Part shown: positions 18,913 through 64,000 of the stretch, in pieces
How the letters are laid out: every line of letters begins with the position of its first letter
Position numbering within the stretch: the stretch's first letter is position 1
IMG/VR virus record: IMGVR_UViG_3300045988_103705
Origin: a virus
Length of the DNA stretch: 64,000 nt
Strand: one strand, 5' to 3'
The notes under the pieces: generated by a model
What the model was told of the DNA's origin: nothing
The model's input: the letters and a program-made list of their open reading frames with translations, nothing else
Databases searched by the model: none
Position numbers and translations under genes: made by a program

Positions 18913-19039
18913 AGTATCAATCTCCTTTAAAGTTTAGTTACTCCCTTGGACAAGGGAGTTGTTTGCAGTTCAATGTTATAAGCCTCGCAAGCATCTATAA
19001 CCCACGGTACTGCGGAACCGGGAGTAGCTAGCCTCATAC

Positions 19040-19126
19040 TGGAGTGAACGGTGGGATTCGAACCCACGCCCTTTTGGGTCACGCGGTTTTGCAGACCGGG
19101 GCCTTAATCCACTTGGCTACGTTCAC
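19040..19126 (-). tRNA. tRNA-Cys(GCA), atypical long variable arm
   Basis: acceptor GTGAACG/CGTTCAC, loop CTGCAAA, T-loop GGTTCGAATCC, CCA encoded; 15-nt variable region. Confidence 0.65.
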
Positions 19127-19269
19127 ATATAATGCCACGATCTAAGGCGGTGGCTCTACCCTAAAGAAAACCCCTAACTCTTTAGCTAATTGGTTATAGC
19201 CCAATTAGGTTTGCATTTTTTTAGCTATAATAAAAAAAGAGGCATGAATCTACACGATTCTGAGGCTTT

Positions 19270-19346
19270 TGGTACTCGAGGTGAGACTCGAACTCACAAA
19301 CATCAAGGTTTGAGCTTGACGGCTATACCAATTAGCCCACTCGAGC
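19270..19346 (-). tRNA. tRNA with anticodon CAA in a class-I (short variable arm) cloverleaf
   Basis: acceptor GCTCGAG/CTCGAGT, D stem GGCT/AGCC, anticodon stem TCAAG/CTTGA, loop CTCAAAC, CCA encoded. Confidence 0.6.
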
Positions 19347-19762
19347 ATTTAATTTAGCAACCTCAGCAATTAAAACATCCAACTTTTTATTTACTTCATC
19401 TAATTTACAACCTTCTGAGTTCTATACCTGAAGAATAAAAGAAATCATTGTAAGTACATCTAAAAATTCAATATTATTTTGCCACATAAATTGCCAACTC
19501 CCCGATAAAGAAAATGCGCGGAAGAATGGCATTATGTCCATTATACAATGGCTCTTCCGCACGATGTCCCGTTTTAACGCTTTATTGTTTTAATTGCAAG
19601 GCTCGCAATATCGCATCATACTTAGGGTATATCATACATTTGATTCATCCAAGGAGCCGAATATTCGGCAATAAAATTTTGCTGTATGAGCCTTATTATA
19701 TATTTGAAAGGAAGATTTACACTTATATTATAAAATATTTTTTAAGTTATTGCAAAAATTTC

Positions 19763-20077
19763 TTACTTTCGCAAATACCATTTGAGGTAATCTAACCAAC
19801 ATTCTTCCCTTGTTGGTTTTGGTTCATTCTTCCAATAGGGAAGAGTTCTCCAATGTCTCCATCGAGCGACTCTCTTTTTATAGAACTCTTCAAAGCTATG
19901 CCCGTAATTTTTATAGTCACAAATATCCCATGATTGAAAGGCTTTCTTATATGAGCGATAAGGCAAACTGTTATCAGGATTTTTTAGAAGCCTTCTAATC
20001 CTCTTGTTTGCGACTTTCTTCAAGAATTTCTGGGAAGTATCTGTATTGTACGGAGTTTTCTTTCTTGATCTACTCAT
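19763..20077 (-). CDS. basic hypothetical protein
   Basis: 104 aa, Lys/Arg/Trp-rich; immediately downstream of the suppressor tRNA. Confidence 0.4.
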   Translation of the reverse strand: MSRSRKKTPYNTDTSQKFLKKVANKRIRRLLKNPDNSLPYRSYKKAFQSWDICDYKNYGHSFEEFYKKRVARWRHWRTLPYWKNEPKPTREECWLDYLKWYLRK

Positions 20078-20096
20078 ACGAATACCTCTTATAATA

Positions 20097-20172
20097 TGGC
20101 AGCGGAGGTCGGATTCGAACCGACTCCCGAGGTTTTAGAGACCCCTGCGCTAACCATTACGCTACTCCGCAA
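20097..20172 (-). tRNA. suppressor tRNA, anticodon CUA (reads UAG), tRNA-Gln-like
   Basis: anticodon stem GGGGT/ACCTC, loop CTCTAAA, so anticodon CTA (plus-strand tag at 20136-20138); 3' end CTCCGCT-G-CCA identical to tRNA-Gln(UUG) at 26618..26692; weak 1:72 pair and G73 as in Gln identity. Confidence 0.75.
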
Positions 20173-20260
20173 TATACTCTCAAGACGCAAAATCATGGCA
20201 AGAAATTAAAAATCAAACTTTTTTATATTCTTAAAATAAATTGCTGAAAGCGTCTTTTAG

Positions 20261-60681: not shown

Positions 60682-61035
60682 TTACTCATATTTACACCTA
60701 TTCATTCTACAGTCTATTGTACATTGCCCTGATGCTCCCTCACAAGGAATAGCATCAGGATAGTGTTCGAAATAAGACGAGGTTAATAGAACTTCATATC
60801 CAAGTTCCCGCAGTATTCTTTCTGCGACATATCTATCTCTTAATTTAATCCATTCTTCTCTATTTACTTTTGTTTCTTCATATATTTTTCGAGATTCTTC
60901 CATATCTATTGTTATGATACCATCGGTGTTAGTTTTAAATACTGAAGGACTTTGTGTATGATAAAATTTTCGAAAGGGATTGTTAATATGAAGAACTTCT
61001 TCAGCATATTTGTCAAAATCTCCCGAAAATTTCAT
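60682..61035 (-). CDS. hypothetical protein
   Basis: probable start at MKFSGDFDKY; the longer track ORF overlaps FolD. Confidence 0.3.
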   Translation of the reverse strand: MKFSGDFDKYAEEVLHINNPFRKFYHTQSPSVFKTNTDGIITIDMEESRKIYEETKVNREEWIKLRDRYVAERILRELGYEVLLTSSYFEHYPDAIPCEGASGQCTIDCRMNRCKYE

Positions 61036-61058
61036 TATCTTTGCGCCTGTTTCGCTAA

Positions 61059-61820
61059 CTATAAACAATTTTTCATCAACCCCAATCTTGTTAATAGACC
61101 TACTCCTCCGGGGACAGGAGTTGACCATACATTATTTCTTTTTGCAATTTCATCAATTTCTACAAAGTCTCCAAGAATAATTCCTGCTTCATTTCTGCGA
61201 ATACCAACATCTATAACAATAGCGTTAGGACAGGCTTCTCTTGTTAAGCTAAATTTTCCTACCGCAGAGACAATTAAATCTGCTTGCCTTGTTAAATAGA
61301 GTTTTGTATTTATATCTGTTTTGCTATGACATACTGATACGGTCATATTTCTATCCAGTAGAGCTTTAGCCATTGGCTTTCCTACAATATCGCTTCTTCC
61401 CAAAATAACAGCAGATTTACCTTCGTAGTTAAAACCACATTCATCCAAATAGTCTATAATTCCTCTTACTGTTGCTGGAGTAATATTGCTCATAGGATTT
61501 AAACCATCCGCATCTTTAGAGATAGGTATTTGACTATAATTGAAATCAATTCCATTTGCTACTGGCATTTGAACTATTACCGCATCCCAGTCTTTCGCAT
61601 GGCCTAAGAGTAATCTTAACTCTACTGAACTATTCGCTCTAAACACTTCTGCTTCCCAACCAAGAGCATTAAAGTCTTTTATTTTATTACGAATATAAAT
61701 TTGATTTGCGGGATCCTAGGCTGTTGCGTCGATAATCATGAGTGATGGAACATTACCACTAATCTCCCGCAATTTGTTTACCTATTGTTGAAAATATTCT
61801 TTTATATTAATCTATTGCAT
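61059..61820 (-). CDS. folD: bifunctional methylene-THF dehydrogenase/cyclohydrolase FolD, TAG-recoded
   Basis: C-terminal half VILGRSDIVGKPMA...VSVCHSKT...LIVSAVGK...IVIDVGI...TPVPGGVGLLT; the N-terminal half continues upstream through at least two in-frame TAG (DATA(Q)DPANQIYIRNKIK); start uncertain. Confidence 0.55.
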
Positions 61821-62212
61821 CTGGATTAAGCCTCCAAGGGTCACTAGTATCGTAATCAATCATTTCATAGAAAGATATTTCATTTTCATTAACTTCTAAT
61901 ACCTAGTGAGGAATACACTATACTTCATAGTCAAAATCTTTATTAATATGGTAAGAAGTATATATATGAATAGCAATAGGTCTAGGATCATTAACTCCCT
62001 AAATATCCCATAAACTTATTGCTTTATTTTGGAAGATTTCCTAAGCATACTATGGAGATATAGCAATACTGATTATTAAGATATTAAAATAATACTATGC
62101 TTTTTTCGGTAAATCTAAATATGGTTCGTCAAAGAACATTGGCAAACAAATCTCCTATCTTATTTTTTATAATTATATTATAACATTTTTAAATAAATTA
62201 ATCAAATAAGAT

Positions 62213-62241
62213 TTGACAATCTAGTTTTTTTTTGTTATTAT
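62213..62241 (+). promoter_or_regulatory. sigma-70-type promoter TTGACA-N17-TATTAT
   Basis: ttgacaatctagtttttttttgttattat followed by AAAGGAG and ATG. Confidence 0.55.
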
Positions 62242-62265
62242 ATGAGTATAAAAGGAGATGACAGT

Positions 62266-63312
62266 ATGATAAAATTAGATTATACTATTGAGTCTCCAGA
62301 AGAACGGAAGGCGCTTGTCGAAAAAATAATCGCAGAAAATCCGAACCTTAGTTCGAGTTATTTAGAAATATTAGCAGATTATTTAGTTCTATGTATGGAA
62401 AAGCAAGAGAAGAAAGAAAAGAATATATTAACAGATAATAGAATGGCTACTGTTAATAAAAGAGAATGTTCTTTCGAAGGGCTTGCGTCATAGATGGAAA
62501 ATGGCGAGGATGGCATTTATGGTTTAATGTCAGAAAATAAAAATGTTATATTTTAGCCAAAGATTTCTATTACACAGAAAGATTTAGATACTATACCATG
62601 TTTAAAATAGTTGAGAGAAACCATTAATGTCTGGGAGGTCGCTTTAAAACGCGCTGCTGGGACAAAATAGGCATATATGATGAAAAAAGCATTAATAGAG
62701 ATGCGAAAAGATTAGTATATCATTAAGCAAGCATATTAGAAACCTATTATACCATGTAAATTAACGAGATCCGTAAGAACTCATATTCCTCTTGATGATT
62801 AGAGTTATCTTAATGGACAGGAGGTAGTAGTAAAGGGTATTTCGCTAATGGACGCCAATGTTGTTTCTGCTATTTTATGCAATTATTCAAAATTAAAAGA
62901 AGATAGTTATGATTAGTTTGAGGGAGATACATGGTATTTAATTCAATCATTTGAAGAAATATGTGATAAAGCTCTCAAAGACTTTCCAATCTATTTACGA
63001 ATTGTTGAACTCAAAATTGATAAAAAGTAGAATAACGAAATATAGGAAATATTAAAAAATGAGTTTGGTAAAACATATAGCGTTGAATATATTTCTAGCC
63101 TATGGAGAAATAAGATTCCTAAACTCATTGCGGAAGAAGCTTTAGAAGATTTTTTACGTTGGTAGTATAAACAAAAAGGATACCCAATGAAAAAATGTTC
63201 TAAGTGTGGGCAATTAAAGCCAGCCCATAATCAATTCTTTTCAAAGAATAAGACAAGTAAGGATAATTTGTATAGTATCTGTAAGCGCTGTCGCAATAAG
63301 AAAAGAGGTTGA
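62266..63312 (+). CDS. hypothetical protein with a C-terminal zinc ribbon, heavily TAG-recoded
   Basis: about 11 in-frame TAG between 62491 and 63180; ends ...CSKCGQLKPAHNQFF...CKRCRNKKRG then TGA at 63310; the track ORF 62242..62493 is its N-terminal part. Confidence 0.5.
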
Positions 63313-63318
63313 TTATAA

Positions 63319-64000
63319 ATGAGCCATTATTGTAAAAAATGTGGTAAAACTATGGATGATAAATAGTTTTATACATCAAAAAATTTAGAGAAGTATCCTC
63401 CAGATGGAAAGATGGATATTTGTAAAAAGTGTCTTACTATGCACGTAGATAACTGGGATCCAGAAACTTATAAATGGATTTTATAGGAGATTGACGTTCC
63501 ATATATTAAAGAAGAATGGAATGGTTTATTGGAGAAATATGGAAAAGATCCAAAGAAAGTTACTGGATTAACTATTATTGGACGCTATTTATCTAAAATG
63601 AAATTAAAGCAATGGAATAAATACACTTGGGCAGATACAGAAACGCTAGAGAAAGATTCCATTGATAAAAAAGTTCTTAATATGAAGGCTCAAGGATTTA
63701 CAGAAGATGAAATTCAAGAGCAGTTGTCTATTGATAGAACTCCTCCAAAACCAAAAGAATTAGAGGATGTTTAGGCCCCTGTAGGAACTCCAGAATATGA
63801 AGATCCAGAGGAAGATGATGATTTTGGTGATTAGCTAACCGAAGAAGATAAATTAGTATTACGTCTTAAATGGGGCCGCGGATATTCTTGGGAAGAAAGA
63901 GTAAGAATGGAGCAGCTTTATAATGATATGATGAGTTCTTATGATATTCAAGGAGCAGGTCATAAAGATACTCTTATTATGGTATGTAAAGCTAGTTTAA
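63319..64000 (+). CDS. hypothetical protein with an N-terminal zinc ribbon, TAG-recoded, partial (runs off the window)
   Basis: GAGG plus ATG; MSHYCKKCGK...CKKC; at least four in-frame TAG; open to the window end. Confidence 0.45.

Follow-up and report, generated by a model that had tools for sequence, protein, structure and literature searches.

The locus described here raises the question of whether a phage reads TAG as a stop codon or as an amino acid and, if the latter, which amino acid is inserted, by which tRNA and to what effect. The DNA was taken from the virus record IMGVR_UViG_3300045988_103705 (IMG/VR), of which a stretch of 64,000 nucleotides (nt), hereafter the window, was analyzed. 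A first reading based on its letters (the sequence-only reading) had proposed that TAG is a sense codon genome-wide and that it is decoded by a tRNA-Gln-derived suppressor tRNA with a CUA anticodon. The source is a large tailed phage of the human microbiome, SPbeta-like and a distant relative of phAss-1, that uses genetic code 15 (TAG to glutamine, Gln); the host is probably a Clostridia-type member of the Bacillota. Taken as a whole, we favor (with a probability of roughly 0.87) a code-15 phage with its own suppressor and TAG-rich virion genes, on top of which the recoding would act as a gate for late genes.

Genes were called with and without TAG as a stop codon, and a codon log-odds model was trained on 15 long TAG-free open reading frames (ORFs). 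Of the roughly 88 genes of the window, all but a few lie on the minus strand, and 17 contain in-frame TAGs, 49 in total. A comparison of ORF length and coverage between the two codes, which the sequence-only reading had suggested, was not decisive over the whole window because freeing TAA or TGA lengthens ORFs equally in AT-rich DNA, and it was replaced by tests of coding potential, homology and extension. For the extension control, the frame was followed beyond the end of each ORF called with translation table 11. Past TAG, the median open stretch was 190 codons (coding log-odds +63), as against 16.5 codons past TAA and 5 codons past TGA, both with log-odds near 0; the long TAA "extensions" that scored positively were neighboring genes sharing the frame by chance. 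Between 62242 and 63312, the coding frame contains 11 TAGs and no TAA or TGA, and the other two frames contain 22 and 34 TAA and TGA codons. Once TAG is treated as sense, the gene ends comprise 72 TAA, 20 TGA and no TAG, just as had been claimed from the genes inspected earlier. One apparent TAG stop, in an NAMPT-like gene (at about 5026), was rejected as an artifact of a +1 T frameshift. This minus-strand gene (6249 to about 4660) has a single extra T at about 5029 (GTTT, versus GTT in relatives) that removes about 120 C-terminal codons, and relatives 99.8% identical over the aligned stretch read on. Either the extra T arose as an error of sequencing, or the gene has been inactivated by a genuine mutation.

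A single profile or PDB match runs across the TAGs in 11 genes, namely an RNA ligase, three tail-fiber ORFs, a GIY-YIG endonuclease, a phrog_5018 protein, uracil-DNA glycosylase (UNG), an RHH (DUF6290) protein, FolD, and proteins of phrog_5767 and phrog_3314. The RNA ligase (8729-10000, minus strand) has one TAG at codon 199 (9404-9406), and its match to phrog_968 covers residues 7-403 across this codon (E = 3e-46). Four minus-strand ORFs form the tail-fiber cassette. A tail-fiber-like protein with an N-terminal Mtd_N domain (21622-22959) has four TAGs and matches phrog_38190 over residues 198-423. The next tail-fiber-like ORF (22985-23620; start uncertain) has five TAGs, a phrog_38190 match and a high coding score across its TAGs. 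A tail-fiber protein with Mtd_N (23601-24161) also has five TAGs, and it matches PF18454 (47.9 bits) and many tail-fiber PHROGs. The small ORF that heads the cassette (24176-24433) has two TAGs and was called by its coding score, with no family match. The GIY-YIG homing endonuclease (29027-29809, minus strand) has three TAGs, two of them within the GIY...YIG motif region, with matches to PF01541 (residues 2-85) and phrog_7168 (E = 2e-23). A single TAG is found in both the phrog_5018 protein (35174-35587, minus strand; codon 18, match over residues 5-110, E = 7e-23) and UNG (39018-39731, minus strand; codon 36, PDB UNG matches from residue 3, E = 1.7e-48). The RHH protein (46090-46227, plus strand) has two TAGs, both spanned by a PF19807 match (residues 1-40, 30.8 bits). 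FolD (61035-61820, minus strand) has four TAGs and matches PF02882 and PF00763, and its PDB FolD match (residues 19-271, E = 2.4e-36) crosses three of them. The first gene of the plus-strand late module (62266-63312) encodes a 348-amino-acid helical protein with a C-terminal zinc ribbon and matches phrog_5767 (E = 6e-38) across 11 TAGs. It is followed by a phrog_3314 protein with a YonG_N domain (63319-64000, plus strand), which is cut by the window end and has four TAGs in the window and nine in the full-length gene of relatives. All examples of in-frame TAGs named in the sequence-only reading were present, and the single hidden Markov model (HMM) matches across them agree with its view that these frames are single genes, not separate genes joined by linkers.

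The amino acid was read from codon alignments of relatives. For the gene at 62266, 80 IMG/VR loci with relatives (58-97% identity) were fetched, and 33 sequences, the window included, were aligned codon by codon. Columns 85, 106, 124, 159 and 278 contain TAG, CAA and CAG only, bar five stray sequences in total, and three of these five Gln columns are exclusively TAG/CAA/CAG. Column 124, for example, has TAG in 10 sequences and Gln in 23, and column 159 has TAG in 9 and Gln in 24. The Gln codons at the TAG columns are mostly CAA, two substitutions away from TAG, which argues for selection for glutamine rather than mutational proximity. In alignments of the terminase-sized, portal and phrog_3314 genes, made from loci that reach past the right edge of the window, 31 of the 46 strongly conserved columns that contain TAG are Gln. 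Across these four gene families (62266, terminase-sized, portal and phrog_3314), Trp was not found opposite TAG in any column, and no in-frame TAA or TGA occurred at the aligned positions across dozens of relatives. Together with the profile matches across TAGs, the codon alignments bear out the proposal that TAG is a sense codon, and they indicate that it is read as glutamine, as in code 15. The TAG count of the same gene varies from 0 to 14 among relatives, and because some family members carry no TAG in these genes, standard-code and recoded relatives must coexist.

Public gene callers store the family of the 62266 gene with Q at its TAG sites; the recoding is thus routinely recognized, and these records are not independent evidence. 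PDB alignments of FolD and UNG were also tried as a way of reading the residue at TAG and set aside, as the homologues were too distant and the positions too variable. Residues opposite the FolD and UNG TAGs were mixed (Q/S/V/R; D/T/E; K/H/E), and the UNG TAG aligns to Q in 3tr7 at a position too variable to assign a residue.

The tRNA expected to read TAG, which the sequence-only reading had recognized at about 20097-20172 from an anticodon loop CTCTAAA, was recovered by ARAGORN at 20097-20171 on the minus strand and by Rfam (60.2 bits). It is 75 nt long with an encoded CCA and folds as a class-I cloverleaf with anticodon loop CUCUAAA, a U1-U72 mismatch, G73 and G10. Two bases separate the acceptor and D stems, and the tRNA has an 8-nt D-loop (AAUGGUUA) with GG, a 5-bp anticodon stem, a 4-nt variable loop and a UUCGAAU T-loop. 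It is the orthologue of the 72-nt tRNA-Sup-CTA of phAss-1 (62539-62610), which agrees with it in the D-arm, the anticodon arm (GGUCUCUAAAACC), the U1 mismatch and G73. Theta or HDV-like ribozymes have been described for many phage suppressor tRNAs; neither was found adjoining this one, even at E ≤ 1.

Among the tRNAs of the window, the nearest to the suppressor by identity is tRNA-Trp(CCA) at 30704-30778 (71%), followed at 67% by tRNA-Gln(UUG) at 26619-26692, which lies next to tRNA-Gln(CUG) at 26541-26615 (all minus strand, in the tRNA array). Isotype profiles, in which the anticodon was masked, were built from 1,025 array tRNAs of 52 related loci. The suppressor scored 38.2 bits for Trp, 35.4 for Gln and 32.8 for Cys and does not group with the tRNA-Gln of the family over other isotypes, the Trp profile being the higher. 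By segment, the log-odds of Gln over Trp were +7.5 and +3.7 for the acceptor stem and +9.6 for the D-arm (together +20.8 bits), -5.2, -2.9 and -6.8 for the anticodon stem and loop (together -14.9 bits) and -5.4 for the variable loop and T-arm, for a total of +1.0 bit over all segments. The suppressor is thus a mosaic, in which the acceptor stem and D-arm are Gln-like and the anticodon arm is Trp-like. It agrees with tRNA-Gln(UUG) at every base of positions 2-6 and 67-72, carries G73 and leaves 1:72 unpaired; its anticodon arm differs from that of tRNA-Trp by a single change, C35 to U35. The likeness to tRNA-Gln(UUG) described earlier is thus real at the acceptor end, while a near-identical overall layout does not hold at 67% identity; derivation from tRNA-Gln fits the acceptor stem and D-arm and not the Trp-like anticodon arm, so that derivation of the molecule as a whole is unproven.

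The bacterial Gln identity set comprises G73, U1-A72, G2-C71, G3-C70, G10, U34/C34, U35, G36, A37 and U38 (PMC9976931). From this set, the suppressor has G73, an openable 1:72 mismatch, G2-C71, G10, U35 and A37. Its 3:70 pair is C-G, likewise C3-G70 in the phage's own tRNA-Gln(UUG); A36 is needed to read UAG, and A38 replaces U38. Either ancestry leads to Gln, as charging with Gln is on record for U35-bearing amber suppressors, one from tRNA-Trp among them (PMC9976931). Compared with E. coli supE (tRNA-Gln, CUG to CUA) and the tRNA-Trp amber suppressor, the suppressor shares CUA and U35, the dominant determinant for glutaminyl-tRNA synthetase (GlnRS), and combines features of both. Those two are point mutants of host tRNAs and weak competitors of release factor 1 (RF1), whereas the suppressor of the window is a dedicated, conserved phage gene with a 1:72 mismatch in a phage tRNA array.

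Three other identities for the tRNA matches were considered and rejected. A tRNA-Trp-derived suppressor with only C35 changed was compared with the Trp identity set (A1-U72, G2-C71, G3-C70, G4-C69, G5-C68, A9); the anticodon arm and A9 fit, and the U-U at 1:72, the C-G at 3:70 and the Gln-like acceptor stem and D-arm do not. tRNA-Pyl has a small D-loop without GG, a 6-bp anticodon stem, a 3-nt variable loop and a non-canonical T-loop, and it is accompanied by pyl genes. The tRNA-Pyl label printed by ARAGORN reflects the anticodon only and is excluded by the architecture given above and by the Gln-aligned TAGs, and no pyl genes were seen among the proteins annotated in the window. A second, hidden suppressor was also discounted, in that two extra Rfam tRNA matches are a tRNA-Tyr(GUA) and an aberrant gene, neither with CUA, UUA or UCA.

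The TAGs are very unevenly placed. The 79 minus-strand genes outside the tail-fiber cassette hold 13 TAGs in 12,942 codons (1.0 per 1000 codons, 3.4% of Gln codons), and these TAG-poor genes cover nucleotide, NAD and RNA-repair metabolism. TAG density is 17.3 per 1000 codons in the tail-fiber cassette (48.5% of Gln codons), 15.8 in a small plus-strand block at 46-48 kb (55.6%) and 26.1 in the plus-strand block from 62266 (51.7%). The difference in density is about 16-26-fold, and the module skew of TAG versus CAA plus CAG has a Fisher's exact p of 5.5e-23. The genome thus contains a sharp internal contrast: about 50% of the Gln codons of late modules are TAG, as against 3.4% in the remaining genes. 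Beyond the right window edge, a 98%-identical relative (locus L145) continues into a packaging/head module with a 581-amino-acid terminase-sized protein (14 TAGs), a portal (12 TAGs) and two capsid-region proteins (0 and 1 TAG). Recoding is therefore not genome-wide in the sense of uniform use, given 17 of about 88 genes and 3.4% versus about 50% of Gln codons. The earlier statement that it is not confined to late genes stands literally (RNA ligase, UNG, FolD, GIY-YIG and phrog_5018) and misses the strong bias toward virion genes. This skew is the known late-gene bias of recoded phages, and variable use in replication genes was already described by Borges et al. (bioRxiv 10.1101/2021.08.26.457843), who reported 26-71% of genes recoded per clade, with structural and lysis genes recoded always and replication genes variably. 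The trait of that model is present here, as TAG is concentrated in the tail-fiber and plus-strand modules and other minus-strand genes are nearly TAG-free.

In practical terms, table 11 shreds about one fifth of all genes and almost every virion gene, and the contig must for that reason be annotated with table 15. In L145, the terminase-sized protein (11174-12919) is a single protein with phrog_15503 matching its N-terminal half and phrog_24618 its C-terminal half, which suggests that fragments of recoded genes, as called with table 11, were the basis of these two families. The tail-fiber cassette (21622-24433, minus strand) is TAG-rich, lies inside the tRNA array and has Mtd_N domains in two ORFs. 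Its consecutive ORFs have diverged repeated segments in common (about 70-75% identity over 32-47 nt) and may represent receptor-binding tips that are used as alternatives or arose by duplication.

Near-consensus sigma-70-type promoters (at least 11 of 12 positions) were found 26 times against 3.6 expected (about 7-fold), 20 of them on the minus strand. They often have an extended -10 TG and are regularly spaced through the tRNA array and the small-gene region, above all on the minus strand from 20 to 58 kb. A perfect match, TTGACA and TATAAT with a 17-nt spacer and TG, lies at 20609-20637 on the minus strand, about 440 nt upstream of the suppressor on the same strand; it is a match to the consensus, and its promoter function is predicted. 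On the plus strand, a near-consensus promoter at 62213-62241 (TTGACA, 17-nt spacer with TGn, TATTAT), kept in L145, is followed by the Shine-Dalgarno (SD) sequence AAAGGAG and the ATG at 62266. No release factor or aminoacyl-tRNA synthetase (aaRS) was found among the annotated genes of the window.

In the mechanism that we propose, the suppressor, lying in a TAG-poor and promoter-rich minus-strand block, could be made by unmodified host machinery, which would also express the metabolic genes. Charging with Gln would fall to a host enzyme, as the window has no aaRS, and would rely on U35, G73, the non-pairing 1:72, G2-C71 and G10 and on the Gln-like acceptor stem and D-arm. The TAG-rich virion genes would be translated only after the charged suppressor outcompetes RF1. 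The code change may then time, or gate, the translation of late genes, a role already put forward for other recoded phages. Several points weigh against this mechanism. Only gene function, strand and promoter motifs were used to call genes early or late. TAGs occur in five metabolic or endonuclease genes verified by homology, such that the gate would be leaky, and the capsid-like genes just past the window hold only 0-1 TAG. The first late-module gene (62266) has a host-type promoter of its own. Of the elements that define Gln identity in E. coli, the suppressor is without G36, U38 and G3-C70. Many Bacillota have no GlnRS and make Gln-tRNA using glutamyl-tRNA synthetase (GluRS) together with GatCAB.

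These observations have to be set against other ways of explaining the locus. If TAG were still a stop, the interrupted genes would have to be split genes, errors of assembly or pseudogenes, with the CUA tRNA as an incidental feature; table 11 does still yield 91 ORFs over 64% of the window, and the NAMPT-like gene does have a true disruptive single-base insertion. TAG nonetheless exchanges with CAA and CAG, never with TAA or TGA, at conserved positions across dozens of relatives, coding potential and single HMM matches persist across up to 11 TAGs per gene, and the essential portal and terminase-like genes hold 12-14 TAGs. We regard this explanation as already refuted by the codon alignments, with virtually no probability left to it. 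It is also very improbable that TAG encodes another amino acid, be it Trp, pyrrolysine or the Tyr, Ser or Leu of classical amber suppressors. The nearness of tRNA-Trp by identity and isotype profile and the "tRNA-Pyl" printed by ARAGORN would favor this, but the alignments gave no Trp at TAG in four gene families and Gln in 31 of 46 conserved columns plus five in the 62266 gene, the architecture is not that of tRNA-Pyl, and the annotated proteins include no pyl genes. In addition, G73 and the lack of a long variable arm are contrary to Tyr, Leu or Ser identity, and U35 amber suppressors, that from tRNA-Trp among them, are charged with Gln (PMC9976931).

A more serious competitor, unlikely all the same, accepts the recoding as real and gives it a main job other than timing: it would harm or reprogram host translation, by reading through the UAG stops of the host or as a counter-defense, or the host itself would read UAG as Gln, with TAGs accumulating where they are tolerated. 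Some phages keep CUA suppressors without recoded genes (PMC12386605), the tmRNA, PTH2 and tRNA-repair genes of this phage could handle translation stress, and TAGs also occur in non-virion genes. Neutral accumulation alone would hardly give the 16-26-fold module bias, though, and the range of 0 to 14 TAGs in the same gene among relatives points to fast turnover under a common constraint on TAG placement. A code-15 bacterium is not known, and the predicted hosts of such phages use the standard code (Borges et al.).

The reading of a code-15 phage also fits what has been published on its relatives. In phAss-1, Babkin et al. 2023 (PMC10607447) reported TAG-to-Gln recoding in 41 ORFs and three tRNA-Sup-CTA genes, together with a wider monophyletic group of which some members are recoded, and predicted a Clostridia host. 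TAG recoding in this phage group is thus already published (PMC10607447), and the novelty implied by the sequence-only reading was too high. NCBI places phAss-1 (OQ749652) under the "Caudoviricetes code 15 clade". A capsid-region protein has 53% identity to phAss-1 and 36% to large Enterococcus phages, with weaker matches to SPbeta-like Staphylococcus and Bacillus phages, and a contig with 99% identity to the window stems from a Human Microbiome Project sample. Megablast of window positions 1-25000 against 50,697 GenBank phages (OQ749652 included) gave zero matches, and this lack of a nucleotide-level match places the phage in a different genus-level lineage from phAss-1. Membership in the proposed genus Phassvirus (phAss-1, ctckW2 and ct6IQ4), for which at least about 80% nucleotide identity and synteny were looked for, was rejected at a protein identity of about 53%; judged by sequence identity, the two would be related at a higher rank only.

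The phage resembles the phAss-1 (proposed Phassvirus) group in its human microbiome source, 100-146 kb genomes, large tRNA arrays, TAG as Gln in many signature genes and lack of a phage aaRS. With phAss-1 it also shares a cluster of NAMPT, PRPP-synthetase and nicotinamidase genes and Clostridia as the predicted host. It differs in having one suppressor, where phAss-1 has three, including an 88-nt two-arm form. With the code-15 crAss-like and Lak phages and the clades of Borges et al., it has in common TAG to Gln, a phage-encoded tRNA(CUA), partial recoding of genes, more of it in structural and late genes, and variable use in genes of DNA metabolism. Proteomic proof of TAG recoding has been given for crAss-like phages by Peters et al. 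(PMC9523058). Unlike these phages and clades, the window showed no RF2 among its annotated genes. The crAss-like and Lak phages infect Bacteroidota, hosts without SD-led translation, in contrast to this Bacillota-type phage. The SD core 4-mer was found at -18 to -5 in 38 of 66 genes against a background of 11%, which substantiates the SD-type ribosome-binding sites noted earlier. SD enrichment, a SpoVT/AbrB-type regulator and the YonG_N domain of the phrog_3314 protein are Bacillota-type signs; the SD motifs and the regulator, with the SPbeta and Enterococcus phage relatives, indicate a Bacillota host. The window is accordingly a well-resolved Bacillota-type case of a phenomenon best documented in Bacteroidota phages.

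More distant relatives carry a CUA tRNA of 88-97 nt with an extra hairpin at the position of the variable arm. The 7-nt loop of this hairpin is CUCUGAA, UUCUGAG, CUUUGAA or CUCUGAC, sequences identical to the anticodon loops of the family's tRNA-Gln(CUG/UUG) (motif YUYUGAN). Two-arm tRNAs were retrieved from IMG/VR in an unbiased manner, by requiring a CUA anticodon loop, a long gap and a T-loop. Nineteen of the 30 distinct inserts contained the Gln-loop motif (1000 shuffling trials gave 3.7 on average and never more than 10), and in all 19 it forms a 7-nt loop on a 2-6 bp stem, with 12 different, covarying stem sequences and only 4 loop sequences. Carriers are the loci L095-L107, L114, L117, L122, L126, L131, L133, L134 and L238-L293, and in phAss-1 (OQ749652) the two-arm tRNA lies at 62445-62532 (12445-12532 in L295). 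In L133 and L122, it occupies the same Ser(UGA)-flanked slot as the suppressor of the window, and in L117 and phAss-1 it stands in tandem with a single-arm suppressor. The suppressor of the window is without the extra arm.

A second arm with a Gln loop was not described in the literature searched. It could have been left by duplication of the anticodon arm of tRNA-Gln, or it could act as a decoy, drawing in an enzyme that reads anticodons. Alternatively, the CUG arm might be the true anticodon arm and the CUA hairpin an insertion, and the junction lengths fit both registers. We tentatively suggest, while rating it as rather doubtful, that this phage group solved the Gln charging of a CUA tRNA by RNA design, through a mosaic tRNA and a decoy or register-switching two-arm paralogue. 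The extra arm would recruit GlnRS or GluRS/GatCAB while the CUA arm decodes, or the tRNA would switch between the two registers. If true, this would be a new kind of tRNA identity device, of which the arm-less form in the window would be a derived or alternative solution. The mosaic tRNA and the two-arm suppressors make Gln charging of a CUA tRNA testable in vitro.

The suppressor belongs to a minus-strand tRNA array at 19040-36906 made up of 33 tRNA genes (31 ARAGORN tRNAs, a tRNA-Tyr(GUA) at 25977-26064 found by Rfam and an aberrant tRNA-like gene) and a tmRNA. The aberrant gene (26255-26371, minus strand; Rfam 49.8 bits) ends in CCG instead of CCA and has, between its D-arm and an anticodon arm of UGG type, an insertion of about 44 nt that includes a hairpin. 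The alternative-register reading of the two-arm suppressors calls for an insertion at just this site. The tmRNA (28739-29059, minus strand) was missed by ARAGORN and found with Rfam RF00023 (76.8 bits, E = 5e-28). Its tag ORF reads approximately ...DEDYFENYLAA and ends in UGA-UAG; the tag terminates in code 15 because the first end codon, UGA, remains a stop, and the tmRNA has at most a putative link to the recoding. Bacterial tRNA-Leu has a long variable arm as a rule, and the Leu(UAA) and Leu(GAG) tRNAs of the window are 87 nt long with such an arm. Three short minus-strand tRNAs with Leu anticodons, at 19270-19346 (CAA), 36017-36093 (UAG) and 36695-36768 (CAA), are 74-77 nt long with short variable loops, the last without an encoded CCA.

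PHROGs labels the 62266 gene a "sigma factor". This label was not borne out, as no Pfam, NCBIfam or PDB sequence match was found and an AlphaFold model (predicted local distance difference test score 74) had no Foldseek match in the PDB (best E = 0.76). The idea of a suppressor-gated late transcription factor was dropped for want of support for the label.

Genes for tRNA and RNA repair are dense at 1130-3865, 8729-13531, 17392-18912 and 59267-59704 (minus strand). This toolkit includes a Thg1-like 3'-5' polymerase, an AAA_33 kinase, three metallophosphoesterases, the RNA ligase, a nucleotidyltransferase, a Ro60/TROVE-type RNA-binding protein and a PTH2 peptidyl-tRNA hydrolase. A free-standing YqeY-like protein (6682-7131, minus strand) has a GatB-tail-type tRNA-binding domain, a domain that helps tRNA-Gln binding in the GlnRS of Deinococcus. 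A role as a recoding-specific helper of Gln charging was rejected for lack of a specific association, as a pattern-based search, which reaches close relatives only, also found close homologues in contig 145614, in which the counterpart of the 62266 gene carries 0 TAG. An NAD salvage cluster at 3946-8517 and 59689-60456 (minus strand) encodes NAD synthase and NAMPT-like, PRPP-synthetase-like and nicotinamidase proteins, and a microbial PARG is encoded elsewhere in the window. A separate SPFH/Band-7 protein is encoded at 82-978 (minus strand). Lastly, a 588-amino-acid protein at 14538-16304 (minus strand) combines the shoulder and repeat domains of the major vault protein with an SPFH-like region, and megaphages (LR7565xx) gave the only matches to this vault-like protein among GenBank phages.

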